DNA of 32,000 nucleotides, from positions 2,040,001 through 2,072,000 of the forward strand of contig NC_008340.1 in NCBI RefSeq assembly GCF_000014785.1, read 5' to 3'. Shown here one piece after another: positions 1,022-15,979 of this stretch. Both the position numbers and the translations under genes were made by a program. The notes beneath the pieces are model-generated. The model was not told the origin of the DNA and ran no database searches. It was given only the letters and a program-made list of their open reading frames with translations. How positions within the stretch are numbered: the stretch's first letter is position 1; each line of letters begins with the position of its first letter. The stretch is from Alkalilimnicola ehrlichii MLHE-1. Its GTDB lineage: Bacteria > Pseudomonadota > Gammaproteobacteria > Nitrococcales > Halorhodospiraceae.

Positions 1022-1237
1022 TGCATAACGCCCGGCCCCCAGCAGGTCAACCAGATCGGTGTGGCCACGGCCCCGCTGCACGTCCGGCACCCAGTGCAGG
1101 TAGCGCATGGTCGAGTGCAGATCCTTATGCCCCTTGCCTTGCTCGATGCGAAGCTGAGAGCGCTCGCCGTCAATGTCCGTGACCCGCACCGCGACCAGCT
1201 CACTGACCCGTAACCCCTTCGCTCTAACGCCAGCCAT
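1007..1237 (-). pseudogene. Remnant of a tyrosine recombinase gene (5'-truncated, internally deleted)
   Basis: The 76-aa ORF contains GLRVSELVAVRVTDIDGERSQLRIEQGKGHKD (box I region) fused directly to LHSTMRYLHW (the C-terminal Tyr region). Most of the catalytic domain is missing. The apparent ATG lies inside attC 1222-1282. Confidence 0.6.
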
Positions 1238-1282
1238 CAGTTGCGCGACGCAAGGAGCGTCAACTGCATGGCATTGTTATAC
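1222..1282 (-). other. Integron attC site (61 bp) closing the type I R-M cassette
   Basis: Plus strand: CTCTAAC-gccaGCCATCAGTTGCGC-gacgcaagga-GCGtCAACTGcATGGCatt-GTTATAC. It is an imperfect palindrome with two unpaired bases on one arm. The minus-strand R'' GTATAAC is the exact complement of the GTTATAC that opens the cassette at 8520-8514. Confidence 0.8.
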
Positions 1283-1303
1283 GCTTTCTGCACCCCAAAA
1301 CGC

Positions 1304-4300
1304 CTATCCGCCGCCGGTGCGCTTTTCCTCACGCACTCGCTTAAAAATCTCCTCGGCAAGGTGCTCATGGGCTGCTGAACGAAACTCCTTGTCGGTCATC
1401 ACACGCGAAAATATGTCTTCGTTGTTTTCCATTCGGTCAATGAACAGTTCATCCAGCATTCGCTCCAGAAATGCGGAGAAGTTTGGCAGGTTGTTTGCCC
1501 TTGCCGCTTCAACGATTTTTTCATTTTCCTCGGCGCTCGCGGTGATCTGATCAAAGAACAGTTGGTCGGCTTCGGTAAAGTCTGTGCCAAAACGTTCGTT
1601 TAGCTTTTCGACCAGTGATGATAGCGGCACGGCTTCCTCCTTCACGCCACTAGTGCCGACATCGGTGGGCCCTTTCAGAGGGTAGGCCTCGCCCGTGCCC
1701 AGGTCGATGGAGCCCTCCGTCATTTGTTGCAGGCGGAAATAGCGCAAGGCCACTTCGTCGTCGAGTGCGAAGGCCTGACCATCGCCAGGAGGGGGAAGCT
1801 TGGAAAGTAAGTTGCGGACGAAGGCGTAAAATTTTTCCAGTTCGCTGTCCTGATACGGAATGATCTGAGATAGAAAAGCGTAGAGATTACGGTAGGCGGT
1901 CAACTGGCCGCGAAACTCTTCTTGCTCCGCTTCCTCCCTGTCACTGAAGCGCGCAACCACCGCATCTAACACTGCATTCATTACCCGGTGGTCGGAAGCA
2001 GAGTGATCCCGTTTGCTCCGATACCATACATCCGCGAAAGCATTGACATCATCGGGCGCAAAGATGGCCCAACCCATAAGTTTGTGTTGCAGCTCGGACA
2101 ACTGGTGCGGATCGGCATTCTCGCCGACAGGTGTAGCCTCGTAGTAGGGCTTGAAGGACTGATAGATATCGTCTTCCTCGTTGGCGAAGTCCAGCACGAA
2201 GGTACGGGCCTTGCCCGGTGCCACACGATTGAGGCGAGACAGGGTCTGCACTGCCTGGACACCGGCCAGGCGTTTGACTACATACATGGTCTGCAGCAGC
2301 GGCTGGTCGAAACCGGTCTGGTATTTCTCCGCGACCAGCAGCACACGGTAATCCTCGCGCTCGAAGGTTTCCGGCAGCTCGCTTTCCGCCAGACCGTCAT
2401 TCATCGCGACCTCGGTGTAAGCGGAACCGGGGTCGTCTGGATCTTCAACGCTACCGGAGAAAGCGACCAGCGAGCGTATGCCGCCATAGCCGTTGTCCTT
2501 GATATAGCGGTCAAAGGCCAATTTGTATTTCACCGCAGCCAGCCGCGATCCAGTCACTACCATGGCTTTGGCACGCCCGCCCATTTCGCTCATCACATAC
2601 AACCGGAAGTGCTCGACGATCACCGAGACCACCTGCTCGATATTGACCGGGTGCAATTCCAGGTAGCGGCTCAGGGCCTTGGCGGCTTTCTTGCGCGGTA
2701 CTTCCGGGTCGTTCTCAACCTGCTTGATCAGGCCGAAGAAGCGCTTGTAGGTGGTGTAGTTCTGCAGCACGTCCATGATGAAGCCTTCTTCGATGGCCTG
2801 ACGCATGGAGTATTCGTGAAACGGAGAGCTGCCGGAGGGGCCCGGTTCATCGAAAAGGGCCTTGGTCTTGAATTTCGGCGTGGCGGTAAAGGCAAAGAAA
2901 CTAAGGTTTGGTTGCCGTGCCCGCTTCAGCGAATCGCGAAGAATAGCGGCCTTGGCTTCATCCGACAGCGCATCGTCTTCCTCATCCGACAACTGGGCGG
3001 CTATGGCCGCCTCGATGCCATCCTTGTTCAGCATGCCCCGCAATTCAGAAGCTGTCTCGCCGCTCTGGGAGGAATGCGCCTCGTCCACAATCACAGCAAA
3101 ACGCTTGCCGGCGGTGCTGATTTTCACCCCTGTGCCCTTTTTCTCCAGCGTAGAAAGGGCCTGGGAAATGAAGGGGAATTTCTGCAAGGTGGTGATAATG
3201 ATCGGCGTGCCGCCGGACAGGGCCTGAGCCAATTGCTGGGTGTTCTCGTCGATCTTCTCCACCACCCCGGTCTTGTGCTCGAACTGGTAGATGGTGTTCT
3301 GCAACTGCTGGTCCAGCACGCGCCGGTCAGTGACCACCACCACCGAGTGGAACACCTTCTGATCCTCGGCATCGTGCAGGCTGGCCAGCCGGTGCGCCAG
3401 CCAGGCGATGGAATTGGACTTGCCGGAACCGGCCGAGTGCTGGACCAGATAATTGTGCCCCGAGCCATTGGCCCGTGCATGGACCACCAGCCTGCGCACC
3501 GCGTCGAGCTGGTGATAGCGGGGGAAGATCATGGTTTCCTTGCGGATGGTGCGCACGCCCTTGTCGGTCTTGACCTGCCGCTCCTTCACCTCCAGGTGCA
3601 TGAAGCGTTGCAGGATGTCCATCAGGCTGTCCTTCTCCAGCACCTCATCCCACAGGTAGTGGGTCTTCCAGTTGTTCTCCACTGGTGGATTGCCTGCGCC
3701 ATGATCATGCCCGCGGTTGAAGGGCAGAAAGACGGTATCCTTGCCCTTCAGGCGCGTGGTCATCCATGCCTCGTCCGGGTCCACGGCAAAATGCACCAAG
3801 GCGCGCTTTTTGAACGCAAACAACAGGTCGCGTTCATCGCGGTCCTGCTTGTATTGCTTGACCGCATCTGCCGCCCGCTGGCCGGTGAGCGAGTTTTTCA
3901 ATTCTGCGGTGACCACCGGCAGGCCGTTCAAGCTCAGAGTGACATCGATAATGCAGCGGCGGTTTTTGGTTGATTTTGGACCATCGGCCTTCTTCATCAC
4001 CGAAGTAAAAGCCACCTGCCGGGTGACCGTTAGCCGGTTCAGTGCGTAGGCGGCCGCCGCCTCCGGGTTCATGCCGGAATTGGGCCGGAAATGCGCCAGC
4101 CGGAAGGTCTTGCCGTAACATTTGAAGCCGTAGCGCAGCACATGCAGGGTGCCCTTGATCTCCAACTCCTTGGCCAGGCTGTGCAGCACCGTGGCGCGAG
4201 TCTTTTCGCCCAGCAAGGCTTCCAGTTGGCCCCACTTGGCCGCTTGGCTGTCCTGCAAAAAACCGGTGACATCCTCTGGGAATATCGCCAACGCCTCGTC

Positions 4301-4393
4301 GTAGGCTGAGGCATTGCGTTTCTCATAGCCGCCCGCACTGGTCAGGCTGGCTTCTATGGCGGTTTCAAAAGCGAGTTCGGAGTGGCCAGCCAT
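1304..4393 (-). CDS. hsdR: Type I restriction enzyme R subunit (helicase/endonuclease)
   Basis: 1029 aa. Walker A (SAGSGKSNS), DEAH box (VIVDEAHSSQSG) and SF2 helicase layout. Last gene of an hsdM-hsdS-orf-hsdR operon. Confidence 0.9.
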   Translation of the reverse strand: MAGHSELAFETAIEASLTSAGGYEKRNASAYDEALAIFPEDVTGFLQDSQAAKWGQLEALLGEKTRATVLHSLAKELEIKGTLHVLRYGFKCYGKTFRLAHFRPNSGMNPEAAAAYALNRLTVTRQVAFTSVMKKADGPKSTKNRRCIIDVTLSLNGLPVVTAELKNSLTGQRAADAVKQYKQDRDERDLLFAFKKRALVHFAVDPDEAWMTTRLKGKDTVFLPFNRGHDHGAGNPPVENNWKTHYLWDEVLEKDSLMDILQRFMHLEVKERQVKTDKGVRTIRKETMIFPRYHQLDAVRRLVVHARANGSGHNYLVQHSAGSGKSNSIAWLAHRLASLHDAEDQKVFHSVVVVTDRRVLDQQLQNTIYQFEHKTGVVEKIDENTQQLAQALSGGTPIIITTLQKFPFISQALSTLEKKGTGVKISTAGKRFAVIVDEAHSSQSGETASELRGMLNKDGIEAAIAAQLSDEEDDALSDEAKAAILRDSLKRARQPNLSFFAFTATPKFKTKALFDEPGPSGSSPFHEYSMRQAIEEGFIMDVLQNYTTYKRFFGLIKQVENDPEVPRKKAAKALSRYLELHPVNIEQVVSVIVEHFRLYVMSEMGGRAKAMVVTGSRLAAVKYKLAFDRYIKDNGYGGIRSLVAFSGSVEDPDDPGSAYTEVAMNDGLAESELPETFEREDYRVLLVAEKYQTGFDQPLLQTMYVVKRLAGVQAVQTLSRLNRVAPGKARTFVLDFANEEDDIYQSFKPYYEATPVGENADPHQLSELQHKLMGWAIFAPDDVNAFADVWYRSKRDHSASDHRVMNAVLDAVVARFSDREEAEQEEFRGQLTAYRNLYAFLSQIIPYQDSELEKFYAFVRNLLSKLPPPGDGQAFALDDEVALRYFRLQQMTEGSIDLGTGEAYPLKGPTDVGTSGVKEEAVPLSSLVEKLNERFGTDFTEADQLFFDQITASAEENEKIVEAARANNLPNFSAFLERMLDELFIDRMENNEDIFSRVMTDKEFRSAAHEHLAEEIFKRVREEKRTGGG

Positions 4394-4396
4394 GGA

Positions 4397-5008
4397 TCAA
4401 ATCTCCTGTATCGAGGTGTTCTGCAACTCGGCCAGCGCCTGGCCGTGCACCTCGTCAAAATGGTAATAGCGTATGGATGGATCAGCGCGGAGTTGCCGAT
4501 TGGGTTCCAGATAGGCGTCTGGGTTGTCATTCTCGGCAAAGACGAATTTGCGAAGATGAATTCGGCGCTTGTCACCGGTGTAATGCTCGATGGTGCGCTT
4601 GAGGCTGTGGACCCAACAGGCACCCGCCCTGAGCTGAGGGACAATCTTTTCAGCAGTCAAACTCTTGGATTTGAACTCGATACAGTCCGCGTAAAACCTT
4701 TGGCCGTTCACATAGAAAATAACGAAGTCGCAGCGCTTTGACCAAGGCTTAGCTGTATCGTCTAGAAAGTGGAAAAGAGGCGGTTTACTCTTTTTCCGCT
4801 GCAACTCAACCTGATCATGGTCCAACTTGAAAGCCAATCCCGGCCCCGGCAAAAGAAGCTGTATTTTCCTTGTTTTCGCGCGGGTCCCTGTTGGAGGAAA
4901 ATACTTTTCTTTCAGGATGACTTCACCTCCCACGCCATCATGCATCACATATCGACTATTTACATAGGCCTTCAGGTGCTCGAAATAGGTGGAGGCTGCC
5001 AACGTCAT
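4397..5008 (-). CDS. Hypothetical protein with a PD-(D/E)xK-like motif, embedded in the type I R-M operon
   Basis: 203 aa. Its start overlaps the hsdS stop (ATGA at 5005-5008) and its stop is 3 nt from the hsdR start. ...KRCD94FVIFYVNGQRFYADCIE111FK113SKS... fits D-x(n)-ExK on consecutive beta-strand-like segments (codons about 4670-4729). No family recognised. Confidence 0.55.
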   Translation of the reverse strand: MTLAASTYFEHLKAYVNSRYVMHDGVGGEVILKEKYFPPTGTRAKTRKIQLLLPGPGLAFKLDHDQVELQRKKSKPPLFHFLDDTAKPWSKRCDFVIFYVNGQRFYADCIEFKSKSLTAEKIVPQLRAGACWVHSLKRTIEHYTGDKRRIHLRKFVFAENDNPDAYLEPNRQLRADPSIRYYHFDEVHGQALAELQNTSIQEI

Positions 5009-6264
5009 TGCAGACCTCCGATTTGGCCAGTGACGGCAGCGGTAATTAGTGCAGAGCGATATTCTTCTAGCTTCTGGACACTACGCTTTACTTCATCTGC
5101 AGCGAAGCGATTCTCTCGATCTACACGTGAACAATAGTCGGCAATCTCAGTTTGCTCATCTAGAAAGGGAATTGGTAACACAAACGCACCAAGCGCTTCT
5201 CGATTTACTTTAGGCATCGCAACGCGAAGTGACTCAAGCTCGGCATAAGCCGTAAACGCATCAGTTAGAAGAAAATAAAATAAGTACCGACGTTCAAAAT
5301 ACTTCCCGGGGTCAATAGCGTACATATCTGCACTGCAAAGACACACTGAATCAAATAACGCAACCTTTCTGAGTGCAGGGCGAATCTTTGAGTATAGAAC
5401 AGAGCCCTCAGAGCAGAAGTATTTCCCGCTAATTGCTCCCTGTTCCTCGGCACTAGGGACATCGTATAGTCGTCCAGTACCGCTTTCTATATAGTCGGGA
5501 GCAATTAAAGGCATATCTGTATACTCAGGCTCGCGAGGATCGACTTGCCCACTTTGTACTTGGCATCTCCATTTGAATGGAACCAGATCCCAATGCGCAG
5601 GAATATCACCCAGCCAGTCGATGCCGGAGGGTTTCATGGGGGCTTCGGGGTTAAGGCCCTTGGTGACGGCGCGGGTGATCAGGGCCTGGCGCTTTTCCGC
5701 CAGCCGGTCCAACAGGGCGCGCTTTTTCTCGATCAGGCCATCGATGCGGGCGGTCTTCTCATCCAGAAACTGCGCGATGCGGCGCTGGGTTTCGAGGGGT
5801 GGGAGCGGCATTTCGATAGTGACCAGCTCACTAGCGTTAATCGCCGGATAGCTGACCCCGACCGAGCGCGAAACAACCTCCGATACAAACGGCTCAGATT
5901 TCGCGGCCCAACCGAGGTATCCACTATCGACTTCTTCCCTGTCTGGTCGAACAACACAAAAACCTGTCGAAGCAATCAGGTCTGGCGAAGCTTCGTCAAC
6001 CTTGGCAATGGCCCTGAGGTAAGTCCGAACTGTAGAAATCAATATGTCGCCGCTTCGCACTTTACGACGAGCACGAGAGGGAGCCTTCCCGAAAGTAATA
6101 CGCTCTACCTGCTCAACTCCACGAGATAGGGAAACACCTGAGATCTCAACGTAGTCGATCTCGGCCTCTTCATCAGTGCTTTCTGGTAAGACCTCATCAT
6201 TATAGGTAGCTAGGTATTTGAGGCGCTTGCTTGACCATGTCGCTGGAAGTGTTACGTCAATCAT
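5005..6264 (-). CDS. hsdS: Type I R-M specificity subunit
   Basis: 419 aa. Two target-recognition-domain-like halves are separated by a conserved coiled-coil spacer (PPLETQRRIAQFLDEKTARIDGLIEKKRALLDRLAEKRQALITRAVTKGL). The C-terminal repeat of the same type is KLEEYRSALITAAVTGQI. Overlaps hsdM by 4 nt. Confidence 0.9.
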   Translation of the reverse strand: MIDVTLPATWSSKRLKYLATYNDEVLPESTDEEAEIDYVEISGVSLSRGVEQVERITFGKAPSRARRKVRSGDILISTVRTYLRAIAKVDEASPDLIASTGFCVVRPDREEVDSGYLGWAAKSEPFVSEVVSRSVGVSYPAINASELVTIEMPLPPLETQRRIAQFLDEKTARIDGLIEKKRALLDRLAEKRQALITRAVTKGLNPEAPMKPSGIDWLGDIPAHWDLVPFKWRCQVQSGQVDPREPEYTDMPLIAPDYIESGTGRLYDVPSAEEQGAISGKYFCSEGSVLYSKIRPALRKVALFDSVCLCSADMYAIDPGKYFERRYLFYFLLTDAFTAYAELESLRVAMPKVNREALGAFVLPIPFLDEQTEIADYCSRVDRENRFAADEVKRSVQKLEEYRSALITAAVTGQIGGLQ

Positions 6265-8438
6265 CCCACCAATCCCCTTAAAAGCCCGGCAATTTCCCCT
6301 TCCAGTTCGGTAATCTCCTGCTCGATCTCGTCCAGCGGACGCGGTGGCTTGTAGACGTAGAAATGCCGGTTGATCGGGATTTCATAACCCACCTTGGTCT
6401 TGCTGTAGTCCACCCAGGCATCATCCACATGGGGCAGCACCTCGCGGGCCATGTAGGCGTCGATCTCGGCCCGGAAGGCGGTCACCAGCTTGTCATTGGG
6501 TTTGTCCGGGCCGAACTGCATTGGCAGGGGCAGTTGGGTGCCCTCGGGCAAGGGGATGTTCTCGGTGTCGCGCAGTTCGCTGTCAGGCTCCGGTCTGCCC
6601 TTGCTGTCGCGGCAAATTTCGGCATCGGGGTCGCGCTCGCCCAGAGCGTTGAAGATGGCCTTTTTGATCGGTACCGGGAGTTTGAGGCTAGCCACCTTGG
6701 CAGCGGCGTTCAGATCCGCTTCGAAAACGGCGCGGTCGGTGTACTGCCCCTTGGGTGCTAGGCTCGCCAACAGAGCGCGAATCGCCTCCTGCTGCTTTTG
6801 CCCTTCCGCGATCTCCTTGGCAGCCGCAGCCTCATTCTTGCGTTTTTTCGAGGTGGCCAGGTTGGCAAAGGCGGTCTGCTCATCCAGCCGGGCAATGCGC
6901 TCCGGCGAAGCTTCGAAGTTCATGCGCAGGGGGCGCTCCACCGTCACCTTGAGAAAGCCGAACTCGCGGTTCTCGAAAATGCGGGAGACCACACGGGTTT
7001 CGGTGTCGCCGTTGATTCTTACCTCGGCGGTTTCACCGTCCCGGTTGTTACCGTAGAGTCGGGTCAGATCGCGGATCTGGTCTTCGGTGACCTCGTTACG
7101 CTTGTTGTTGAGGCTTTTCTTCATGCGCTGGAAAAAGCGTGTGCCGTCGATTAGTTGCACCTTGCCGCGCCGCTCCGGGGCCTTGCGGTTGGTCACCAGC
7201 CAGACATAGGTGAAAATACCGGTGTTGTAGAAAAGCTGGTCGGGCAGCGCGACGATGGCATCGAGCCAGTCGTTTTCGATAATCCAGCGGCGGATATTCG
7301 ACGGCCCGGAACCGGCATCACCGGAAAATAGCGGCGAGCCATTGAAGACGATGGCGATCTTGGAACCGACGGAGTCGTCATCCCCCTCTTTGTAGGGGTG
7401 CATCTTGGCGATCATGTGCTGCAGGAACAGCAGGGAGCCGTCATTGATGGCGGGCAGGCCGGCGCCGAATCGTCCGGCAAAGCCCATCTCCTTGTGTTCT
7501 TTCTCGACGACGGTTTTCTGGTCTTTCCACTCCACACCAAAGGGCGGATTAGCCAGCAGGTAGTGAAACTGCTTGCCCTCGAAGCCGTCGCGGGTCTTGC
7601 CGTCGCCCAGGGTATCGCCCAGCACGATGCTGCTGGTGTCTTCATCCTTGATCAGCATGTCCGAACAGCAGATGGCCCAGGACTCGTCGTTGTACTCCTG
7701 ACCGAACAGCGCCAAGTTAGCCTGACTGTTCTGGTCGAGGATGAATTTCTCCGATTCCGACAGCATGCCGCCCGTACCGCAGGCCGGGTCGTAAATAGTG
7801 CGGTAGATGCCCGGCGTGTAAACATCCTGTTCGCCGGTGTAGACCAGATTGGCCATCAGGCGGATGACTTCGCGCGGGGTGAAGTGGTCCCCGGCCTCTT
7901 CGTTGGCCTGCTCATTGAAGCGCATCACCAGATGCTCGAACAGGTAGCCCATTTGCAGGTTGTCGATGCGGTCCGGGTGCAGGTCCACTTCTGACATCGC
8001 CTTGACGATGGTAAACAGCCGGTTGCTGGCGTCGAGTTTTTCGATCTGGTCAGTGAATTTAAAACGCTCGAAGATGGCCCGAGCCGTAGGCGAGAAACCG
8101 TTGATATAGGCGACAAGGTTAGGCGCAATGTTCTCCGAATCCCCCAACAATTTCTCGAAGATGAACGGACTGGTGTTGTAGAGAGGGTGGGTTCGGTCAG
8201 GATCGGCCGCCTTGCCCAACAGCTTCTCCATGGCATTTTCCGGCATACCTTGAGCGGACAGCTTTTCGTATTGCTTCAGCACCGCTTCTTTGGTGGGCTC
8301 CAGCACACAATCCAGTCGCCGCAGCACGACCATAGGCAGCATGACCAAGCGGTACTGAGGGGGGCGGTAAGGGCCGCGAAGGCGGTTGGCGATTTCCCAG
8401 ATGTGGCTTTTGAGCTGGTCGTGCAACTGCAAGTTCAT
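6261..8438 (-). CDS. hsdM: Type I R-M N6-adenine DNA methyltransferase subunit (long form, 725 aa)
   Basis: HsdM N-terminal region, AdoMet motif (DPACGTGGML) and catalytic NPPFG (LLANPPFGVEW). A long C-terminal extension is present. AAGGA lies upstream of the ATG. Confidence 0.9.
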   Translation of the reverse strand: MNLQLHDQLKSHIWEIANRLRGPYRPPQYRLVMLPMVVLRRLDCVLEPTKEAVLKQYEKLSAQGMPENAMEKLLGKAADPDRTHPLYNTSPFIFEKLLGDSENIAPNLVAYINGFSPTARAIFERFKFTDQIEKLDASNRLFTIVKAMSEVDLHPDRIDNLQMGYLFEHLVMRFNEQANEEAGDHFTPREVIRLMANLVYTGEQDVYTPGIYRTIYDPACGTGGMLSESEKFILDQNSQANLALFGQEYNDESWAICCSDMLIKDEDTSSIVLGDTLGDGKTRDGFEGKQFHYLLANPPFGVEWKDQKTVVEKEHKEMGFAGRFGAGLPAINDGSLLFLQHMIAKMHPYKEGDDDSVGSKIAIVFNGSPLFSGDAGSGPSNIRRWIIENDWLDAIVALPDQLFYNTGIFTYVWLVTNRKAPERRGKVQLIDGTRFFQRMKKSLNNKRNEVTEDQIRDLTRLYGNNRDGETAEVRINGDTETRVVSRIFENREFGFLKVTVERPLRMNFEASPERIARLDEQTAFANLATSKKRKNEAAAAKEIAEGQKQQEAIRALLASLAPKGQYTDRAVFEADLNAAAKVASLKLPVPIKKAIFNALGERDPDAEICRDSKGRPEPDSELRDTENIPLPEGTQLPLPMQFGPDKPNDKLVTAFRAEIDAYMAREVLPHVDDAWVDYSKTKVGYEIPINRHFYVYKPPRPLDEIEQEITELEGEIAGLLRGLVG

Positions 8439-8513
8439 TTAGTTGATTATCCTTTTGATATTAGTGCGTGTTTCTGTAGATAATGTTCTCAGGTGAAGCG
8501 GTATTGTGAGTGC

Positions 8514-8603
8514 GTATAACGCAAAGGTAACCGGCGCCGGAGCGCCAGCGGGGGGAACCAAAAGCGGAACGCTTTTGGCGTCCGGTTGACCGCTTGGTTA
8601 GAG
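8514..8603 (-). other. Integron attC site (90 bp) closing the DUF867 cassette
   Basis: Plus strand: GTATAAC-gcaaaGGTAACCGGCGCC...GGCGtCCGGTTgACCgcttg-GTTAGAG. T and G are unpaired on the arm next to GTTAGAG. A perfect 9-bp inner hairpin (CCAAAAGCG-gaa-CGCTTTTGG) is present. The ORF stop codon (8598-8600) lies inside the R'' box. Confidence 0.85.
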
Positions 8604-9212
8604 CAGGCCTGCACGAATCAGCCCCTGACGAACGGCATCGACAAATTTATAGAACACGTCAGTCTGGCGTGCTCTTCCAGCTTTATTGAGAGACTCAAAG
8701 AGAGTGCTTCTCAAGCCGCGGGAGAGCTCTAATTGAACACCAGCTCCGCTCGTTCCGCGATTACAGATATTCGCTCGTGATGTCCCTTGAAGATTCGGGT
8801 TTTCATGCTTGCGCACGGTAAAACCGGCCTCTGCAAGTGCTTCGCTTATTTGAGAGCGCAGCAGCGCATCGGCACCGCCAGCAAATACCGTTTCCCCTGG
8901 GCTGTTTTCACCATGTATTGCTACAGCAGTGCGAGACCGCGCGACTACTTCGACACAACGAGGTTCATCGAAATTCGTACTGGTTATATGCAAGTCCCGG
9001 TTCTTGGCTACCTTAGTACCCTCAAAAATTGCGAAACTAAACTGCTCGCCTGCAATAGCAAAGGCCAACTCTGATGTGCCTGGCTCAATTGCACCACCAT
9101 GCGGGGCAATCACAGCTACCGCTGCTTCGTCTCGCACCGCCACCTGAACGCGAAAATCGCGCCCTTCAGTTTGCTCAGCTTTAAGTGCTTTAAAATTTGA
9201 GTATCTGTCCAT
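8598..9212 (-). CDS. Poly-gamma-glutamate hydrolase family (DUF867 / PghP-like) protein
   Basis: About 204 aa. APHGGAIEPGTSE and ...AVAIHGE... match the remembered HGG-IE-GT and downstream His zinc-ligand pattern of the family. The ATG at 9212 is preferred over the TTG at 9215. Confidence 0.65.
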   Translation of the reverse strand: MDRYSNFKALKAEQTEGRDFRVQVAVRDEAAVAVIAPHGGAIEPGTSELAFAIAGEQFSFAIFEGTKVAKNRDLHITSTNFDEPRCVEVVARSRTAVAIHGENSPGETVFAGGADALLRSQISEALAEAGFTVRKHENPNLQGTSRANICNRGTSGAGVQLELSRGLRSTLFESLNKAGRARQTDVFYKFVDAVRQGLIRAGLL

Positions 9213-9219
9213 CAATTCG

Positions 9220-9288
9220 CTCTAACGCTCAACTAAGCCGCTGGGCGGAGCGTAGCGTAGCCCAGTCGGCTTGAGTGTTATGTTAGCG
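9220..9288 (-). other. Integron attC site (69 bp) closing the membrane-protein cassette
   Basis: Plus strand: CTCTAAC-GCTCAActaAGCCGcTGGG-cggagcgtagcgtag-CCCAgtCGGCTTGAGt-gttat-GTTAGCG. The minus-strand R'' CGCTAAC is the exact complement of GTTAGCG at the cassette start (10209-10203). A tandem partial box GTTAT/GTTAGCG leaves the exact R'' register ambiguous. Confidence 0.75.
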
Positions 9289-10188
9289 ATTCGACATAAC
9301 ACGATAGAACTCTCTCACTGCACTTGCGAACGCGGAGCGTTCCCTAAGCAGTCGCACATACGTCGGCAGATTAAATCCGATAACGGGAGAGAGCAGATTG
9401 CCACGAATGCTGCCGGCCAGCATGGATATTGGCCCGCTCAACTTCTCCGCACAGTCAATAAATTGTTGGCATTCCTGTACGTTCACTTGATTATGGAACT
9501 CTTGGATGTAATTGGGATTATTCACATCGACTATTGGTACATGAATCCACATCTTTCTCCCGATCTCCTCAAGAGCCTGCACTGCCTCATCAAAGGCATC
9601 CGGCATTCCCCAGCCCGAACATAGTATTGTGTAGTTCCTTCCCTTTATTCGATGAACTTGTACCGTGGCCTGCGACAGTTGCTCTCTCGCTGATAGGAAT
9701 TCTCTAGTCTGGCTCAGGGCCCAGTCCACCTTAAATTTTGCCTCACGAGCGTTACTCCCTCTTTGGACCTCATTCACCGCTTCAACGAGGGACTCTACGA
9801 AGAGCTGCGCATCAGTTACAAGTTGGTTGGTTGTTCCAAAAAAATGCTCGATTTCGCCCGCTGTCTGGGTTCTAAGCTGCGCCTGTTGCTGCTGCTTCCA
9901 GCTCACGGTTGCCGTATGAAATGCCACCACAAAGCCACCAAGAGTTACCGCTGCGGTGGCAAGTCCTACTTTGTAAGCCTCCGGCTGTCCGTTGAACCAC
10001 AATACCAACTCGCCAGGGGAAAATGGCTCTACACCGAGCACAGTCTCCGCCCCTACGTATAGTGATATCGCCAGCGCTAGTGCACCCAATGCAGTGCCGA
10101 AAAGAAAGTGCACCAACATCCCAATCGAAATGAACGCGTAGAACGCTGGAACGGCCACTTGAGGTGGAATGCGCTGGAATATCTTCAT
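9283..10188 (-). CDS. Hypothetical membrane protein (2-3 N-terminal TM helices plus a helical soluble domain)
   Basis: The ORF track gives 9283-10266. I prefer the ATG at 10188 (MKIFQRIPPQ...), which is preceded by GGGAG. The hydrophobic stretches are AVPAFYAFISIGMLVHFLFGTALGALALAISLYVGA and VGLATAAVTLGGFVVAFHTATV. No family recognised. Confidence 0.55.
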   Translation of the reverse strand: MKIFQRIPPQVAVPAFYAFISIGMLVHFLFGTALGALALAISLYVGAETVLGVEPFSPGELVLWFNGQPEAYKVGLATAAVTLGGFVVAFHTATVSWKQQQQAQLRTQTAGEIEHFFGTTNQLVTDAQLFVESLVEAVNEVQRGSNAREAKFKVDWALSQTREFLSAREQLSQATVQVHRIKGRNYTILCSGWGMPDAFDEAVQALEEIGRKMWIHVPIVDVNNPNYIQEFHNQVNVQECQQFIDCAEKLSGPISMLAGSIRGNLLSPVIGFNLPTYVRLLRERSAFASAVREFYRVMSNR

Positions 10189-10202
10189 ACGTCTCCCAGA
10201 CT

Positions 10203-10274
10203 CGCTAACGCCGCGCTCTGCGGCAAATTTGGAGCGCAGCGGAGAATTTGTCCGACAGCAGCGCATTGTTAGGG
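10203..10274 (-). other. Integron attC site (72 bp) closing the CHAT-like cassette
   Basis: Plus strand: CGCTAAC-gccGCGCTCTGCGGCAAATT-tggagcgcagcggag-AATTTGtCCGaCAGcAGCGCatt-GTTAGGG. It forms a long imperfect stem with unpaired bases on the arm next to GTTAGGG. The minus-strand R'' CCCTAAC is the exact complement of GTTAGGG at the cassette start (11148-11142). Confidence 0.85.
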
Positions 10275-10277
10275 ATT

Positions 10278-11126
10278 TTACGTGGCAACAATATCATCCT
10301 TAGATAAAGGGAAGCGCGCATCATTTTCTGGAAAATCAGCAATGAAGAAGAACCTTTTTCTGAGTTTATCAAAGTGCTGATCTTCAGATGCAAGACCTTT
10401 CTTTACTTGCTGTCTGGCCCATGCCACACCACGTCTCTTTACGTCGGGGTTTTTCATCGCCTCAGAAACAAGGCGTTCTACCCTTTCTTTCTTCCCTTTC
10501 CCGACACAGTGACTTTTATAGTAGGCTCGGTAAGCCCTTGAAAATAGTCCAGCAGCGCTTAAAAAATGATAGGTTCGATCTTGATGCTCTGCCCCTTCAT
10601 TAAGGATACCTATGGCTTTATCACCATCGAGGTCGAAAAAGAAGGACTCATAAAACCGACCGAAATTATCCTGAATATGCCCAGCAGTTACTTCTACCTC
10701 CGGACCAATTATTGCCCAGAAAGGAGCCGCATCTAGCCTTGTAGATGCTTTTATTAAATGGGCACCATTGCAGGCAGCAATTACAATCATCAGATTTAGC
10801 TTAGTCGCTCGGTTAATCTCAATAAGTATCTCTCTGATTTCATCCCATTCAACCAGTTCTCCGCTAGCGGTTCCCAAGCCGTCTTCACACCCATGACACT
10901 CAAAGTGGATCATTGGATATATTCCGCTCAAAGCCTCATTTCGTATTTTTTCTAATACGTCAAACAGCTCGGACTTAGTTATTGGCTCAGCGAATTCGAC
11001 GACAAGGTCTTGCTGTACCTGCTTAGCCTTGTCCAGCTGATTGTCGAAGAGATTTTTCCCGGTTCTAAGCTCACCTGATGGTAAAGATTCTATAACCCAC
11101 AGCTTATTGAAAATATTTCCGGACAT
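10278..11126 (-). CDS. Putative clan-CD (caspase/CHAT-like) cysteine peptidase, single-gene cassette
   Basis: 282 aa. A hydrophobic strand followed by His-Gly (PMIHFEC-H78-G) and, 41 residues later, a hydrophobic strand followed by Cys (LMIVIAA-C119-NGA). This is the order and context of the caspase-hemoglobinase-fold catalytic dyad. H78 codon 10893-10895; C119 codon 10770-10772. Motif-level call only. Confidence 0.5.
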   Translation of the reverse strand: MSGNIFNKLWVIESLPSGELRTGKNLFDNQLDKAKQVQQDLVVEFAEPITKSELFDVLEKIRNEALSGIYPMIHFECHGCEDGLGTASGELVEWDEIREILIEINRATKLNLMIVIAACNGAHLIKASTRLDAAPFWAIIGPEVEVTAGHIQDNFGRFYESFFFDLDGDKAIGILNEGAEHQDRTYHFLSAAGLFSRAYRAYYKSHCVGKGKKERVERLVSEAMKNPDVKRRGVAWARQQVKKGLASEDQHFDKLRKRFFFIADFPENDARFPLSKDDIVAT

Positions 11127-11141
11127 GACGATTCCATTTAT

Positions 11142-11217
11142 CCCTAACGCGCAGCGTAACCGGTCGGATTTGGAGCGTCAGCGGAAAAGCCGATCCGTGT
11201 TGACGCTGTTGTTGTGC
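11142..11217 (-). other. Integron attC site (76 bp) closing the DUF262-HEPN cassette
   Basis: Plus strand: CCCTAAC-gcgCAGCGTAACCGGTCGG-atttggagcgtcagcggaaaag-CCGAtCCGtGTTgACGCTGtt-GTTGTGC. The 16-nt arm pairs perfectly once T, T and G on the other arm are flipped out. The minus-strand R'' GCACAAC is the exact complement of GTTGTGC at the cassette start (13051-13045). Confidence 0.85.
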
Positions 11218-11260
11218 TAAGCTGACGGATCGAATTCGTCTCGCCGCCACTCCTTATCCA

Positions 11261-11893
11261 TTACTCTGCACAATTCATAATATTATTTTGGAAACAATCC
11301 GATAAAACCAGAAGCATCCTTTGCGTAAACGTGACGTGCTCCCTGATATCTATCGTCGACAAATCCGGGTCATCGCCATGCGCAATACTATGGCGCCACC
11401 TCACAAGCTCGTTGTCTATTTTAAGGCGCCACCGCAAGAATGGAGAGCAATCGAACCCCATGACTTCGAAGTTGTCTTTTAACTTTCTGAAATCTAGATT
11501 TGATCTAGAAGAAACCACTTCCTTATCAAAATTCAAAAAGTCCCCTCTTGTCACTTCCTGAAATCGCAAGATAAACTCTACTGCTGCAAGCTGAGAATGA
11601 TTTCTATCTCTGAGCCTTTGAAAATCAGACTGGAGCAACCCAATCAGCATTGGCCAAGAGACATCTGAAACCTTCTTTCTAGCCTCCCTCAAAAAATCTA
11701 TGTAAAGAGATACGCAATCGTTATAAAACCCTTCCCAGTGAGAATAGGATAAAACGATAACTGCCTTCGACTGGACCCCAAATTGCGCAATAGAGCCTAG
11801 CTCATTCATTCGGACTTTTATCTCTGACAGTTCCTTGGCTCGGCGCAAGCGGATCGAATCCAAGTCTGAGAGAAATTGAAAAACATCGCTCAT
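11261..11893 (-). CDS. HEPN-domain protein (MAE_28990/MAE_18760-like), predicted RNase effector
   Basis: About 210 aa. Rx4H motif W-R-H-S-I-A-H-G (codons 11378-11395) near the C-terminus, plus the upstream YSHWEGF element typical of this HEPN family. The ATG at 11893 overlaps the DUF262 TGA (ATGA). The ORF track starts at 11908. Confidence 0.7.
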   Translation of the reverse strand: MSDVFQFLSDLDSIRLRRAKELSEIKVRMNELGSIAQFGVQSKAVIVLSYSHWEGFYNDCVSLYIDFLREARKKVSDVSWPMLIGLLQSDFQRLRDRNHSQLAAVEFILRFQEVTRGDFLNFDKEVVSSRSNLDFRKLKDNFEVMGFDCSPFLRWRLKIDNELVRWRHSIAHGDDPDLSTIDIREHVTFTQRMLLVLSDCFQNNIMNCAE

Positions 11894-12999
11894 TGTGGAG
11901 AAAACCAATTCTCACCAAATGGTACGGTTCTTTGGATCCGAGTAGTCCCTCGCAAGCCTGACGCACTCAACTCGGCGACATCTCTTTCTCGCCAGAACCG
12001 ATCGACGCGCTCACGCAAAAAACCATCCGGGTCTTCCAAGTCCTGAATTTTTTCTTTGTTTCTGGCGACCCCTACCAATATCGCTTCCAGTGCACGCAGA
12101 GAAAATCTTTTGGCTATTCCTTGATAAGCCTCGTCATGAGGAATCAAGGCATCGCCCCCGAATAAGCTATGCAAGCTATTGACGGCCCATTCCACCGTAT
12201 GGATCACATCATTCGGATCTTGATCCACGATAATTCGCGCAATACTTCGGTCGAGGAACTCCTGAACATCAGCATCTGAGCCAAAATCTTCGACTGTATG
12301 AACAATAGCACGAACCGCATATTCAACATCTTTTTGTTTTAAATTCTGCTCTTCCGTAATTTTAAAAATATTTATAAATTCTTCGCTTCTTGCCAGATTC
12401 CTTATTCGAGCGGTAGCATCTGCATTTCCAAGCACCATTGAACAAGTGCGGACTTCCTGCTCATTAGCGTACTCGCCACCCCGATTCAATCGCTGAAACA
12501 AATCAAATTTCGTTTTTGCGTCACTTGGGTGTTTAAGTATCTGGAAATCCAAGCGTGACCGACGAAAGAAAAGCTGAAGAGATTTTTCAAGAACTTGAGC
12601 ACCTCCATCTCCTCCTTCTGTTGGCCACACGACACCATCTAAGGACGGAAGATAGGTTGCAGTTGTCAGAGTAGAAGGCGGCATCTTCTCTGCAGGATTA
12701 TCTGGTTCGCGCAAAACGCCCATGAACTCGAGCACTGTGGAGATACGTTGTAACCCGTCTATCAGCTCCCATGTTCCATCTGGCTTTTCATATGCGAAAG
12801 CCGGGGGCACAGGGATTCCAATCAAAATCGATTCGATAAAAGCCGTCTTCTTTTCAGGAGACCAACGAAATAATCTCTGAAAATCAGGGATAATATCTAG
12901 CTCCTCCGCCGCATACATGGAAGCGATCTCCCCAATGGAGATTTGCAAACTATCGGTAACAACTGATCGCTTTGCGGTTTCTAGTTCATTTCTTAACAT
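11890..12999 (-). CDS. DUF262 (ParB/Srx-fold, GmrSD-N-like) protein lacking a DUF1524/HNH nuclease domain
   Basis: DFQRLFRW, IDGLQR and FQRLNRGG motifs match the DUF262 signature (QR..W, DGQQR, LN.GG). The ATG at 12999 is preceded by GAGGG at 7-nt spacing. The ORF could extend to 13017. Confidence 0.75.
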   Translation of the reverse strand: MLRNELETAKRSVVTDSLQISIGEIASMYAAEELDIIPDFQRLFRWSPEKKTAFIESILIGIPVPPAFAYEKPDGTWELIDGLQRISTVLEFMGVLREPDNPAEKMPPSTLTTATYLPSLDGVVWPTEGGDGGAQVLEKSLQLFFRRSRLDFQILKHPSDAKTKFDLFQRLNRGGEYANEQEVRTCSMVLGNADATARIRNLARSEEFINIFKITEEQNLKQKDVEYAVRAIVHTVEDFGSDADVQEFLDRSIARIIVDQDPNDVIHTVEWAVNSLHSLFGGDALIPHDEAYQGIAKRFSLRALEAILVGVARNKEKIQDLEDPDGFLRERVDRFWRERDVAELSASGLRGTTRIQRTVPFGENWFSPQ

Positions 13000-13044
13000 T
13001 AAGCAGCCCTCAAGCATGGAGAATCATAAGCAGAAATTTCATCT

Positions 13045-13063
13045 GCACAACGCCTAGTTAACC
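13045..13063 (-). other. attI-like simple site at the head of the cassette array
   Basis: Minus strand: GGTTAAC-taggc-G|TTGTGC. The GTTGTGC core is cognate to the R'' of the first cassette's attC. A related 19-bp site (plus strand GTTCAAC-gcctt-GTTGCAC) lies at 13140-13158. Overlaps the last codons of the IS91 tnpA ORF. Confidence 0.5.
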
Positions 13064-14343
13064 GGCCCGCATCGAGGCAAATAAAAATGCCGATCGCCCT
13101 CATTCACCTCGGACCTCCTCGAAGGCACTAGCGGGTCCGGTTCAACGCCTTGTTGCACACTGCCCGAAGCCTTCGGAGGCGACCCACTTCTTATTAGGGA
13201 ATTTTGAATCCGGTGGCGACTCGGGGGAAGCGTGAATCCCCGGATCAGCTCGGCACCGCAAGCGGGACAGCACAGGGCGTCGCTATGGCCAAGCATCTCC
13301 AGGTACGCCTGCCAGGTCTGCTTCTTCGGCTCCACTTCGGGCATAGGCGCCCCCATTTGTTCTCGGCAAGCCATTCGCTTGGCACGGCAGGTGTGGGCAT
13401 ACAGACCAACGTGGCGGACGGTGTGCTGACCCGGCTCCGGGACATGCCACAGGATCTGTTCCATGAATCGCTCCACCGCCACACGCCGCAGTTTCCGTCG
13501 ACCATCCCGGTGGTCATGGTAACGGAATTGAACCTGGCCTTCCCCCAACGACTTGATCCGGGTGTTTGTGATGGGTCCGCCGCGCACGTAGCGAGACAGG
13601 TACGCAGCGACTCCTCGTCCATGTGTATAGCGGCCCTGCAAACGGACATTCCATTCTTTCTTCGCAGTGGCCTTGAGCCAGTAATCCACGGTCGGATGAT
13701 CGCCACGGGGCGCTTTCAGTCGGCCAGTATCCAGATCATGGCGCAGACGGGAGAGTAGTTTGCCCCGGAACACGCGCTTCACCACGGCCGCAGGCAGCAG
13801 AAAGTCACCCTTCACCGCTCGCCACTGTCCACCCGTCGTCAATCCACCCCCACTGATCAAGCAGTGAACATGGGGGTGGGCGTTAAGGGTTCGACCCCAC
13901 GTGTGCAGGGCCATCACAATGCCGGGGACCGCCCCTAGGTGACGATCTTGCGCAAGCAGTTGGATGAGGGTGTCCCGACTGGCATCGAATAGCGCGGCCA
14001 CGAAGGACCGGCGGTTGTACCGCCACAGGGGGATCAATTCATGGGGCACGGTAAAGATAGCGTGGAAATGATCGCAAGGCAGCAGGCGGCCTCGTTCACG
14101 CTCCATCCACTGTGCCTTGGCACGCTCCGCACATTGCGGGCAGCTACGATGCCGGCACGAGTGGTACTGCACGCGGCGGTGGTGGCCATGGGGACAACAC
14201 TGCTCGTGGCCCCCCAGCGCTTCCGTCCGGCAATTCATAATCGATTCTGCCGCTTTGAGCTGCGGGAGCGGAAAACAATGATGTTTACGAAGCCCATCAA
14301 AATGCTCCAGAAATACGTCCTGAATGGTCGGCTTCCTTGCCAT
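13054..14343 (-). CDS. tnpA: IS91-family (HUH, Y2) rolling-circle transposase; element ends not defined
   Basis: 429 aa. N-terminal Cys/His zinc-binding region (CCPHGHHRRVQYHSCRHRSCPQC), HUH motif (HPHVHCLISGGG), YxxxY pair (YLSRY) and C-terminal CPACG. The last approximately 55 aa look non-conserved and run over the attI-like sites. Confidence 0.85.
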   Translation of the reverse strand: MARKPTIQDVFLEHFDGLRKHHCFPLPQLKAAESIMNCRTEALGGHEQCCPHGHHRRVQYHSCRHRSCPQCAERAKAQWMERERGRLLPCDHFHAIFTVPHELIPLWRYNRRSFVAALFDASRDTLIQLLAQDRHLGAVPGIVMALHTWGRTLNAHPHVHCLISGGGLTTGGQWRAVKGDFLLPAAVVKRVFRGKLLSRLRHDLDTGRLKAPRGDHPTVDYWLKATAKKEWNVRLQGRYTHGRGVAAYLSRYVRGGPITNTRIKSLGEGQVQFRYHDHRDGRRKLRRVAVERFMEQILWHVPEPGQHTVRHVGLYAHTCRAKRMACREQMGAPMPEVEPKKQTWQAYLEMLGHSDALCCPACGAELIRGFTLPPSRHRIQNSLIRSGSPPKASGSVQQGVEPDPLVPSRRSEVNEGDRHFYLPRCGPVN

Positions 14344-14590
14344 TGATTGAGCCTCCTGTACGGCGCTCCATGCCGTATATTACAGACATTGCAACGCGGC
14401 ATGTCTTCGCCAACTAACTGAAAAATCGCAACATCTGCCGCGAAGCGGCTTTGTGCAACAGTTGATTCTACTGCGTCTGTAGAGGCGGTGATATGCAGAC
14501 GCCGCATGTCACACCCGGGATACTTGATATCGAACCAGTCGGTGGCGCATGCTTATCGTGCATAGTCATGGACTGACGGAGTAAGGAATC

Positions 14591-15979
14591 ATGGTTGATC
14601 CAAGCCGCAAAGATGCCCGTGCCCGGTTCTGGGATCGTTACATCCAGGCTCTCCGAAAGCAAGGCGTGAAGCCACCCTTCGACCGATGGCACGTACGTCG
14701 GGCGGAGGAGTTCATCAAGGCGCACCCTGATCAAAGGCTTCGCGAGTTGGGCCCTGATGGCGTGCAAAGCTACCTGCGACGGAAGGGACACGCCGGTAAT
14801 CTCAAGGCCTGGCAGTTCCAGCAAGTGGTTCGTGCTATACAGACGCTGTATAGCACGGCTAACATAGCATGGGCTGCGAGGTTCGACTGGCAGTATTGGA
14901 TGGATGCCGCCCGAACGCTCGAGCCTGAACACGTTTCTACGGCCCGGGACACCCCAGCGCCAACTCCGGTACGGCTTGCCGAACGTGTTGCTGACACTCG
15001 TCTGGCACACGTGGTACACGCGCACCCCGCGCTTTTTGAGGCTTTTTCTGAAACAGTCACCAGCAGAGGCTTGGCGATCAGCACCGAGAAAACCTACCTG
15101 GCGTGGACCTGCCGGTTCATTGTGTTTCTGCAGTCGAAGCCTGTGGAAAGCGCGGACGAGGCGGATGTTCAACAATTTCTCAGTCAGTTGGTCACACAGC
15201 GCAATGTAGCCGCCAGCACCCAGAGCCAGGCTCTGAACGCTTTGGTCTTCTTCTTCCGGTACGTTCTGCAGCGACCGCTTGGCGAACTCCAGGCTATTGA
15301 GAGGTCAAAACGGCCCAGGCGCCTTCCTGTGGTTCTCTCTCGCAATGAGGTCAAGGCGCTGTTGAGTGAAATGCACGGTGTTCACCATTTGCTGGCCTCA
15401 TTGCTTTATGGTTCCGGCATGCGGGTCATGGAAGCACTACGATTGCGCGTCAAAGATATAGATTTCGAGCGGCGGGCAATCACGGTGAGATCCGGCAAAG
15501 GCGATAAGGATCGCGTGGTACCCCTTCCCGAATCCACGATAGCGCCGCTCCAGAACCACTTGCGGCAGGTGAAGGCCATTCACGAGGGAGACCTGGCCGA
15601 TGGGTACGGTGAAGCCTCCCTCCCCCATGCCCTGGCCCGGAAGTACCGCAATGCCGGGAAGGAATGGCATTGGCAGTATGTGTTTCCCAGTGCCCGGGTA
15701 GCGGTCGATCCCCGATCAGGGGCGATCCGTCGACATCATCTTCATGAAACCGCTGTCCAGCGTGCGGTAAAACGGGCGGTGAGAGCCTCCAGAATACCGA
15801 AACAGGCCAGTTGCCACACCTTGCGGCACAGTTTTGCCACGCACCTGCTGGAGCGCGGCCAGGATATCCGAACCGTGCAAGAGCTCCTGGGCCACGCGGA
15901 TGTATCGACGACCATGATCTACACGCATGTAATGAGCAAAGGTGGCGTCCCTGCGGCGAGCCCGTTGGACGGGCTTTAG
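14591..15979 (+). CDS. intI: Integron integrase (IntI-type tyrosine recombinase) with an approximately 130-aa N-terminal extension
   Basis: 462 aa. It aligns by eye with IntI1 across the N-terminal SAM-like domain, box I ([27 protein letters not shown]), the IntI-specific insertion ([21 protein letters not shown]...RRHHLHE), [28 protein letters not shown] and the tail GG..ASPLDGL. AAGGA lies 4 nt upstream of the ATG. Confidence 0.85.

Follow-up and report, generated by a model that had tools for sequence, protein, structure and literature searches.

PD-T4-2, an anti-phage system of Escherichia coli ECOR65 reported by Vassallo et al. in 2022, is listed as 'DUF262, HEPN', and HHpred placed PF03235 at the top for its first protein (PD-T4-2A) and PF18735/PF18737 for its second (PD-T4-2B) (PMC9519451). 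The system protects against T4 when carried on a plasmid, and its native deletion sensitises ECOR65. PD-T4-2B was also mutated (H127A), and according to the authors the mutated residues are essential (PMC9519451). Here we describe a pair of genes in a 32,000-nucleotide stretch of the genome of Alkalilimnicola ehrlichii MLHE-1 (NC_008340.1, positions 2,040,001 to 2,072,000, forward strand; hereafter the window, whose own numbering is used throughout). The pair encodes a ParB-like DUF262 protein (gene A) and a HEPN protein (gene B) and is carried on an integron gene cassette (Table 1). We consider, with a probability of about 0.62, that this cassette is a two-gene anti-phage module of the PD-T4-2 type. 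An earlier, sequence-only reading of the same DNA had proposed a candidate two-gene defence system for which it was aware of no experimental characterisation. The proposal was a reasonable one. The domains, the coupling of the genes and the cassette status all hold; the statement on characterisation is outdated at the level of the architecture, PD-T4-2 having been validated in 2022 (PMC9519451).

Related combinations of domains are known from several other sources. Table 1 of Anantharaman et al. (2013) contains the entry 'Ribo L-PSP-HEPN ... operon with ParB' (PMC3710099), and the ParB/DUF262-HEPN neighbourhoods that the sequence-only reading mentioned from comparative genomics are indeed to be found there. 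A validated defence system with ParB-like and HEPN modules, PD-lambda-5, was described by Vassallo et al. in 2022. In Menshen (NsnABC; Millman 2022), a study from 2025 described NsnA as a ParB-DUF262 protein with a DNA-binding ParBDB domain and proposed for it the role of a sensor (PMC12065111). In GmrSD, BrxU and SspE, the DUF262 domain is an NTPase/sensor that couples recognition to the DUF1524 nuclease (PMC10952713).

The two genes of the window are joined by an ATGA, within which the ATG of gene B overlaps the TGA of gene A (11890-11893). This overlap, claimed in the sequence-only reading, can be seen directly in the minus-strand sequence and supports translational coupling of the two genes. 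In the mechanical list of open reading frames (ORFs), gene B is given as 11261..11908 with a TTG start and 215 residues; the protein was 100% identical to the deposited sequence (accessions in Table 1). As for gene A, the true start is probably M7 (position 12999, giving 369 residues), because the consensus of 32 homologues starts at this residue and the RefSeq protein WP_156774667.1 is also 369 residues long. The G+C content of the pair is 43-46%, against 70% for the neighbouring mfd gene and roughly 70% for the chromosome, and the pair is therefore clearly foreign DNA.

We examined the primary structure of protein A with profile searches. PF03235 (GmrSD_N/DUF262) was the sole match in Pfam, well above the cut-off (70.7 bits against 33.2; 2.4e-19; residues 38-191). 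The motifs that had been quoted for the first gene are all present, with DFQR at residue 45, DGLQR at 87 and LNRGG at 177. Among 32 homologues with 59-83% identity, the motifs QRxxxW (I), DGxQR (II) and FxxxN (III) are invariant or nearly so; Q47, R48, W52, D87, Q90, R91, F174 and N178 are invariant, and G88 is conserved in at least 90%. Protein A thus displays both the profile match and the three motifs that define the DUF262 (GmrSD_N) domain. Neither DUF1524 (PF07510) nor an HNH or other nuclease domain was found in protein A by Pfam, in agreement with the earlier remark that the nuclease half of GmrSD-type enzymes is lacking. The best match in PADLOC was NsnA (1.5e-47, 160.7 bits), with residues 21-348 aligned to positions 46-355 of the 385-position model. 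PD-T4-2_A (PDLC04027) ranked below it (1.5e-29, 101 bits), its best stretch covering only residues 27-100. NCBIfam contained no model matching A or B. An AlphaFold (AF2) model of A, with a mean predicted local distance difference test score (pLDDT) of 82.5, consists of an alpha/beta N-terminal and a helical C-terminal domain. Its best folds in the PDB, all with weak E-values, were ParB CTPases (ParB-CTP), BrxU (probability 0.99), pNOB8 ParB and SspE. Taking the profiles and the model together, protein A is predicted to be a ParB/Srx-fold DUF262 protein that binds nucleoside triphosphates (NTPs) and carries a helical, NsnA-like C-terminal domain of the ParBDB type.

One further feature of protein A was noticed. 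Its extreme C-terminal tail (SASGLRGTTRIQRTVPFGxxWFxP; residues 351-374, window 11890-11965) is almost invariant across the family, and it is still recognisable in the partner of a HEPN protein only 29% identical to B (locus L043). The tail may serve to bind DNA or to contact the HEPN protein.

Protein B matched two HEPN profiles over nearly its full length, PF18735 (HEPN_RiboL-PSP; 109.7 bits, cut-off 28.4; 2.1e-31) and PF18737 (HEPN_MAE_28990; 83 bits, cut-off 26.8; 4.6e-23). For both genes, the Pfam searches suggested in the sequence-only reading therefore gave profiles above their cut-offs. The YSHWEGF element, cited there in support of a MAE_28990-like family, lies at residue 50, and the RHSIAH sequence at residues 167-172 contains the Rx4H motif as R167-H172. 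These are the residues that had been designated R172 and H177; the motif stands, and the former numbers result from counting from the TTG. In 38 homologues of 40-79% identity, W166, R167, H168, A171, H172 and G173 are invariant, and the conservation of Rx4H among homologues, on which the earlier reading had made its case depend, was thereby borne out. Protein B accordingly combines a HEPN profile above the curated cut-off with the conserved Rx4-6H motif of the superfamily. The AF2 model of B (pLDDT 90.7) is all-helical. Profile searches of PDB sequences with the pair returned nothing meaningful.

How does the pair compare with the systems mentioned above? The ParB-HEPN operons of Anantharaman et al., which involve the RiboL-PSP-HEPN and MAE_28990 families, constitute a computational catalogue only, and the cassette in the window is without the methylase. 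PD-lambda-5 resembles the pair in its ParB-like and HEPN modules, but is listed as 'ParB/HEPN, methyltransferase', whereas the cassette has no methyltransferase; the PADLOC models for PD-Lambda-5 matched neither A nor B. With Menshen, the NsnA match of protein A implies a shared architecture, ParB-DUF262 followed by a C-terminal ParBDB-type domain, and with it the role in sensing DNA that has been proposed for NsnA. Unlike Menshen, the cassette lacks both the ABC ATPase NsnB and the inPIN-effector NsnC, and it has two genes with a HEPN protein as the predicted effector. Membership in Menshen was rejected, as NsnB and NsnC are absent and the HEPN gene follows A, after which the cassette ends. 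The ORFs neighbouring the pair gave no match in PADLOC.

Protein A shares with GmrSD, BrxU and SspE a DUF262 domain with QRxxxW, DGxQR and FxxxN, followed by a helical middle domain, and BrxU and SspE are its best folds after ParB. The role of DUF262 in these three enzymes supports the assignment of A as a sensor/NTPase. It differs from them in having no DUF1524 His-Me nuclease domain, the predicted effector being instead a separate HEPN RNase, and the absence of DUF1524 from A led us to reject GmrSD-type membership. The resemblance nevertheless raises the possibility of a type IV restriction-like activity, with the DUF262/ParB-like protein itself acting as a nickase or nuclease on modified phage DNA and with the HEPN protein in an accessory or regulatory role. 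Enzymes that target modified DNA, namely GmrSD, BrxU and SspE, have DUF262 as their N-terminal half, and the last two are among the best structural matches of A. Some ParB-fold proteins have been described as nucleases, Anantharaman et al. using the term 'ParB nuclease', and PD-T4-2 was selected on T4, whose DNA carries glucosyl-hydroxymethylcytosine. On the other hand, cleavage or nicking in GmrSD, BrxU and SspE is assigned to DUF1524, and protein A contains neither this nor another nuclease domain. The HEPN site itself appears to be functionally needed, because its catalytic Arg and His are invariant and the equivalent His is required in PD-T4-2. We therefore regard a restriction-like activity of protein A as quite unlikely.

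The similarity to PD-T4-2, on which our preferred reading is based, was examined against a reference locus (L001) located via a published lambda-red primer. This locus occupies a P4-like satellite hotspot between psu and int, and consists of a DUF262 gene followed by a HEPN gene. The pair in the window has the same design: two co-oriented, tightly spaced genes, the first with PF03235 and the second with a PF18735 HEPN domain bearing Rx4H, no DUF1524, ATPase or third gene, and a location on a mobile element. In BLASTP, protein A was 28% identical to PD-T4-2A over 177 residues (E = 3e-20). When PD-T4-2A itself was searched against PADLOC, it matched both of the families matched by A, namely NsnA (1.1e-58, 197 bits) and PD-T4-2_A (2.3e-162, 538 bits), the latter compared with 101 bits for the protein in the window. 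As to the second genes, PD-T4-2B passes PF18735 with 31.4 bits against the cut-off of 28.4, and this is its sole link to protein B. The two systems also differ in the length of the HEPN protein (210 residues here, 167 in PD-T4-2), in the junction of the genes (an overlap here, a 4-nt gap in PD-T4-2) and in the carrier (an integron cassette as opposed to a P4-like satellite hotspot).

Several results speak against placing the pair with PD-T4-2, and most of them concern protein B. At E <= 10, B matched none of the PADLOC PD-T4-2_B models (PDLC04028-04030), nor any other PADLOC model, and eight other HEPN members of its family likewise gave no match, whereas the genuine PD-T4-2B matched all three PD-T4-2_B models. 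The question whether the pair is already a named system, which the sequence-only reading had referred to such a search, is thus answered differently for the two genes, A matching NsnA and PD-T4-2_A and B matching nothing. BLASTP found no match between B and PD-T4-2B. When family alignments of the two proteins were compared with hhalign, the probability was 0.7%, and with a wider profile of 131 sequences it was 3.6% (E = 0.012), only the Rx4H helix being aligned. We therefore rejected B as an orthologue of PD-T4-2B, since PADLOC, BLASTP and hhalign all showed no similarity beyond the catalytic helix, and because of these results the transfer of function from PD-T4-2 is founded on a common architecture and a common Pfam family rather than on orthology. 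The HEPN assignment of B is in turn one of sequence profile only, because Foldseek detected no structural neighbour of its model in the PDB at E <= 0.001; the hits were non-specific helical bundles (best E = 0.31). PD-T4-2 was itself still 'largely uncharacterized' in mechanism as of 2025 (PMC12065111). With respect to expression, a scan for promoters and terminators between 11000 and 14700 revealed no sigma-70-like promoter upstream of the pair above chance, as judged against shuffled sequence, and a transposase unit of the IS91 family (IS, insertion sequence) with its own attC-like site stands between the pair and the integron promoter region.

In another reading, the pair would be a distinct, widespread defence family and not a PD-T4-2 orthologue, with a trigger and an RNA target of its own. 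Here a ParB NTP switch on DNA would gate a HEPN RNase without an ATPase, a minimal form of the Menshen logic exchanged as a cassette between unrelated integrons. We hold this to be possible, at odds clearly below even. Judging from the domains and their order, we rather see in the pair a divergent, widespread sister variant of PD-T4-2 and not a new kind of system. Nor would a specialist be surprised by it, given that the association of such genes in operons has been on record since 2013 and a validated relative since 2022, and that both A and B have names in RefSeq.

The distribution of the pair was investigated in a scan of one genome per species, which yielded 41 loci encoding relatives of protein B. 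The hosts belong to the Gamma- and Alphaproteobacteria, Bacteroidota, Cyanobacteria, Acidobacteriota, Binatia, Armatimonadota and Verrucomicrobiota, so that the family is present in at least six phyla. In every one of these loci with an intact HEPN gene, a homologue of gene A lies directly upstream, and in all 24 loci that could be scored the stop of A overlaps the start of B, by 8 or 14 nt. The linkage is kept even where the HEPN proteins are only 23-29% identical, in two metagenome contigs and on plasmids of Bacillus cereus, Psychrobacter cryohalolentis and Roseomonas mucosa. On these plasmids the RefSeq annotation reads 'DUF262 domain-containing protein' followed by 'MAE_28990/MAE_18760 family HEPN-like nuclease'. 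The flanks showed no conserved third gene: of the 73 proteins encoded there, at most 2 belonged to any one Pfam family, with sporadic occurrences of resolvases, integrases, a transposase and a conjugative coupling protein. Two of the plasmid copies adjoin restriction-modification (R-M) genes of the BsuBI/PstI type. These results reveal that A and B are an obligate two-gene unit. With its motifs invariant across phyla and the overlap present in all 24 scored loci, the family shows signs of purifying selection. An exhaustive phmmer search with the HEPN protein gave 760 cluster representatives (at 50% identity) at E <= 1e-3, 70 at <= 1e-10 and 18 at <= 1e-30. In tblastn, the intI and the neighbouring cassette proteins of the window had no match in the 41 loci. 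We saw no integrase within 6 kb of the pair in those loci, in which attC sites were not searched for. The phage genome collection contained no homologue of B by tblastn, a result that counts neither for nor against a defence function.

The boundaries of the cassette in the window could be defined with a second A. ehrlichii genome (CP184336.1, locus L048), which carries the same cassette DNA at 100%/99.9% identity. The identity between the two starts exactly at GTTGTGCAG, that is G/TTGTGC (13051; the slash marks the crossover), and stops at GCGTTAGG (11143). Beyond these points the two arrays differ on both sides. Upstream, attI and intI are found in L048 and an attC-like site in the window; downstream, L048 has a cassette for a minimal cyclic oligonucleotide-based anti-phage signalling system (CBASS), with a CD-NTase and a Cap15 receiver domain, and the window has the 282-residue ORF listed in Table 1. 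The boundaries leave room for A and B only. The terminal attC (11140..11216) lies within the block common to the window, L048 and L049, up to GCGTTAGG.

Within the window, five attC-like sites follow the stops of minus-strand ORFs (13040-13162, 11140-11216, 9222-9286, 8508-8601 and 1216-1284), each an imperfect palindrome with bulged bases, a 5' core ending in AAC and a 3' core beginning with GTT. The first of these forms the junction ahead of the pair's cassette, and the 3' end of the IS91 transposase ORF runs into it. A MAFFT alignment of the five sites was uninformative, as their lengths differ, and the assignment as a cassette therefore rests on the comparative junctions. The pair accordingly shows the hallmarks of an integron gene cassette, with G/TT at its bounds, an attC at its end, an intI in the window and occurrence of the same unit in different arrays. 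It is one discrete, self-contained, horizontally mobile integron cassette, and the cassette status proposed in the sequence-only reading was confirmed by the different neighbours at both junctions. The intI genes of the window and L048 could be aligned in a single stretch of 329 bp, in which they are only ~67% identical in nucleotides. It follows that the identical cassette has been transferred between different integrons, and the sequences indicate that this transfer was recent. That integron cassettes serve as a reservoir of defence systems has been documented (bioRxiv 10.1101/2024.07.02.601686).

We also noted that the mechanical intI ORF of the window encodes 462 residues, of which the integrase model matches only 150-462, and that the intI of L048 encodes 331. 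The first ~130-150 codons (14591-15040, plus strand) may be untranslated and overlap the attI/promoter region.

The sequence-only reading had regarded the pair as the first, attI-proximal cassette and, on this ground, as the best expressed. This does not apply to the window, where the IS91 gene and an attC-like site intervene; only in CP184336.1 does the identical cassette lie directly beside attI/intI, in first position of a different integron (L048 3188-9318). The argument for high expression fails because the IS91 unit is situated between the pair and attI. In the window the attI crossover can be placed by inference only, at a GCGTT core equal to that of the five attC R' boxes, with the 12-mer GACATGCSGCGT repeated 105 nt upstream (Table 1). 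As regards the IS91 gene itself, the region (13040-14405) looks like a cassette, with the GCG/TTGCAA core 45 nt before the ATG and a GGAGG ribosome-binding site. The last ~35 codons of the gene extend into the attC-like site at 13040-13162, and the transposase model stops at residue 364 of 429. The gene may be a captured transposase cassette, or an IS that inserted into a former first cassette. A blastn search of plasmids with this region, meant to define the ends of the IS, found no other copy.

The second strain is also informative with respect to a toxin-antitoxin (TA) or addiction module, in which the HEPN protein would be a constitutive RNase toxin and the DUF262 protein its antitoxin, the module mainly stabilising the array or its mobile carrier rather than sensing phage. 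Like the pair, type II TA systems typically have their regulator gene first, overlapping and coupled with the toxin gene. HEPN toxins do occur in TA systems, an example being HEPN-MNT, and TA cassettes are known to stabilise chromosomal integrons. The pair is moreover found on plasmids, and the Roseomonas copy adjoins a RelE/ParE TA system. In CP184336.1, however, an ISL3 transposase interrupts the DUF262 gene at a point corresponding to 12490/12489 of the window, while the HEPN gene is intact and 100% identical. A constitutively toxic B with A as its essential antitoxin is hard to reconcile with this arrangement, which would be lethal unless polarity silences B. With 369 residues, two domains and invariant NTP-binding motifs, protein A is also unlike the small, labile antitoxins, and it is more conserved than B (59-83% against 40-79% identity). 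Rfam and tRNA scans of the whole window had no match, and there is thus no sign of an RNA antitoxin. Finally, the relative PD-T4-2 protects against phage, although TA and defence functions are not mutually exclusive. We consider a TA module unlikely.

The split copy, together with the position of the IS91 unit, could also be taken to mean that the pair is non-functional cargo in this strain, either an intact but silent cassette or genes with a non-defence role in RNA/DNA metabolism. The absence of an own promoter above chance is consistent with this, and the genes that flank the pair elsewhere are heterogeneous and often metabolic. Promoter and terminator sites in the scanned region taken together were not more frequent than in shuffled sequence. 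Against such a view, both ORFs are intact, their motifs are invariant across phyla with the overlap conserved throughout, and the cassette is identical in two integrons with clearly different intI genes, which points to recent transfer. The chance that the pair is mere cargo is in our estimate very small.

Returning to the PD-T4-2-type module, we propose the following mechanism. A and B would be produced in a fixed ratio by translational coupling, and would form a complex that holds the HEPN protein inactive. On infection, A would recognise a feature of the invading DNA, modified or otherwise foreign, by analogy with GmrSD, BrxU, SspE and the model for NsnA. A would then undergo an NTP-dependent switch, and in its switched state license the HEPN RNase B to cut cellular and/or phage RNA. 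Translation would stop and the phage could not propagate, the outcome being growth arrest or abortive infection. Among these steps, those that we infer are the action of A as a sensor, the formation of the complex and RNA as the target of B; protection against T4 and the need for the HEPN histidine are findings on the distant relative PD-T4-2. The defence context in the window is provided by a type I R-M operon in the same array, in CP184336.1 by the CBASS cassette next to the pair, and on two plasmids by the adjoining R-M genes.

Table 1 Features of the window, with positions in window numbering (a slash in a sequence marks the crossover).
Feature	Position	Strand	Remarks
Gene A, ParB-like DUF262 protein with helical C-terminal domain	11890..13017	minus	375 residues; ABI57141.1 / WP_156774667.1
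Gene B, HEPN protein of the RiboL-PSP / MAE_28990 family	11261..11893	minus	210 residues from ATG; ABI57140.1 / WP_011629534.1
ATGA stop/start overlap of A and B	11890..11893	minus	plus strand reads TCAT; read directly from the sequence
Integron gene cassette with the pair	11143..13051	minus	~1.9 kb; crossover G/TT between 13051 and 13050 and between 11148 and 11147
attC of the pair's cassette	11140..11216	minus	R''...AAC / GTT...R'; imperfect palindrome, bulged bases on the 5' arm; from predicted fold and core sites
attC-like site of the preceding unit	13040..13162	minus	GTGCAAC-AAGGC-GTTGAACCGGACCCGC ... GCGGGCCGGTTAAC-TAGGC-GTTGTGC; predicted stem
IS91-family transposase gene between intI/attI and the pair	13054..14343	minus	NF033538 transpos_IS91 1.6e-114; PF04986, PF14319
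Putative attI crossover	14385..14405	minus	GACATGCCGCG/TTGCAA; 45 nt upstream of the IS91 ATG
Integron integrase intI	14591..15979	plus	divergent from the cassettes; TIGR02249 integrase_gron 448 bits (cut-off 265)
Next cassette, 282-residue and 327-residue ORFs 11 nt apart	9283-11126	minus	no Pfam, NCBIfam or PADLOC match
Poly-gamma-glutamate hydrolase-like protein, single-gene cassette	8598-9215	minus	PF05908 4.9e-68; attC-like sites 9222-9286 and 8508-8601
hsdM	6261..8438	minus	type I R-M operon
hsdS	5005..6264	minus	type I R-M operon
203-residue ORF between hsdS and hsdR	4397..5008	minus	no Pfam match; overlapping or adjacent stops/starts
hsdR	1304..4393	minus	type I R-M operon

The remainder of the array contains further cassettes. 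The type I R-M operon (1216-8601) is complete and lies between the attC-like sites at 8508-8601 and 1216-1284. It appears to be a single integron cassette of ~7.3 kb, which is unusually large; a survey of defence systems in integrons reported that cassettes favour small systems (bioRxiv 10.1101/2024.07.02.601686). The operon includes the 203-residue ORF (4397..5008); work elsewhere has looked to genes nested in defence operons in order to find new defence genes. In the cassette that follows the pair, the 327-residue protein has, by eye, a hydrophobic N-terminal region, and the 282-residue protein an H...C pattern (HFECHG ... AACNGAH) reminiscent, again by eye only, of caspase-like proteases. 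A search of PDB sequences with the 282-residue protein gave no match. The two ORFs are possibly a defence pair of a new type.

If the cassette is active, the validated design of PD-T4-2 would be carried over to a far larger, more diverse family, one that the PADLOC v2.0 models failed to recognise in our searches, and defence inventories built on those models would undercount the family. The pair would offer a compact two-protein model for signalling from a ParB/DUF262 NTP switch to an effector, a question common to PD-T4-2, Menshen and Dazbog. Found in two integrons with integrases about one-third different from each other, the cassette provides a clean natural example of defence genes moving as cassettes.

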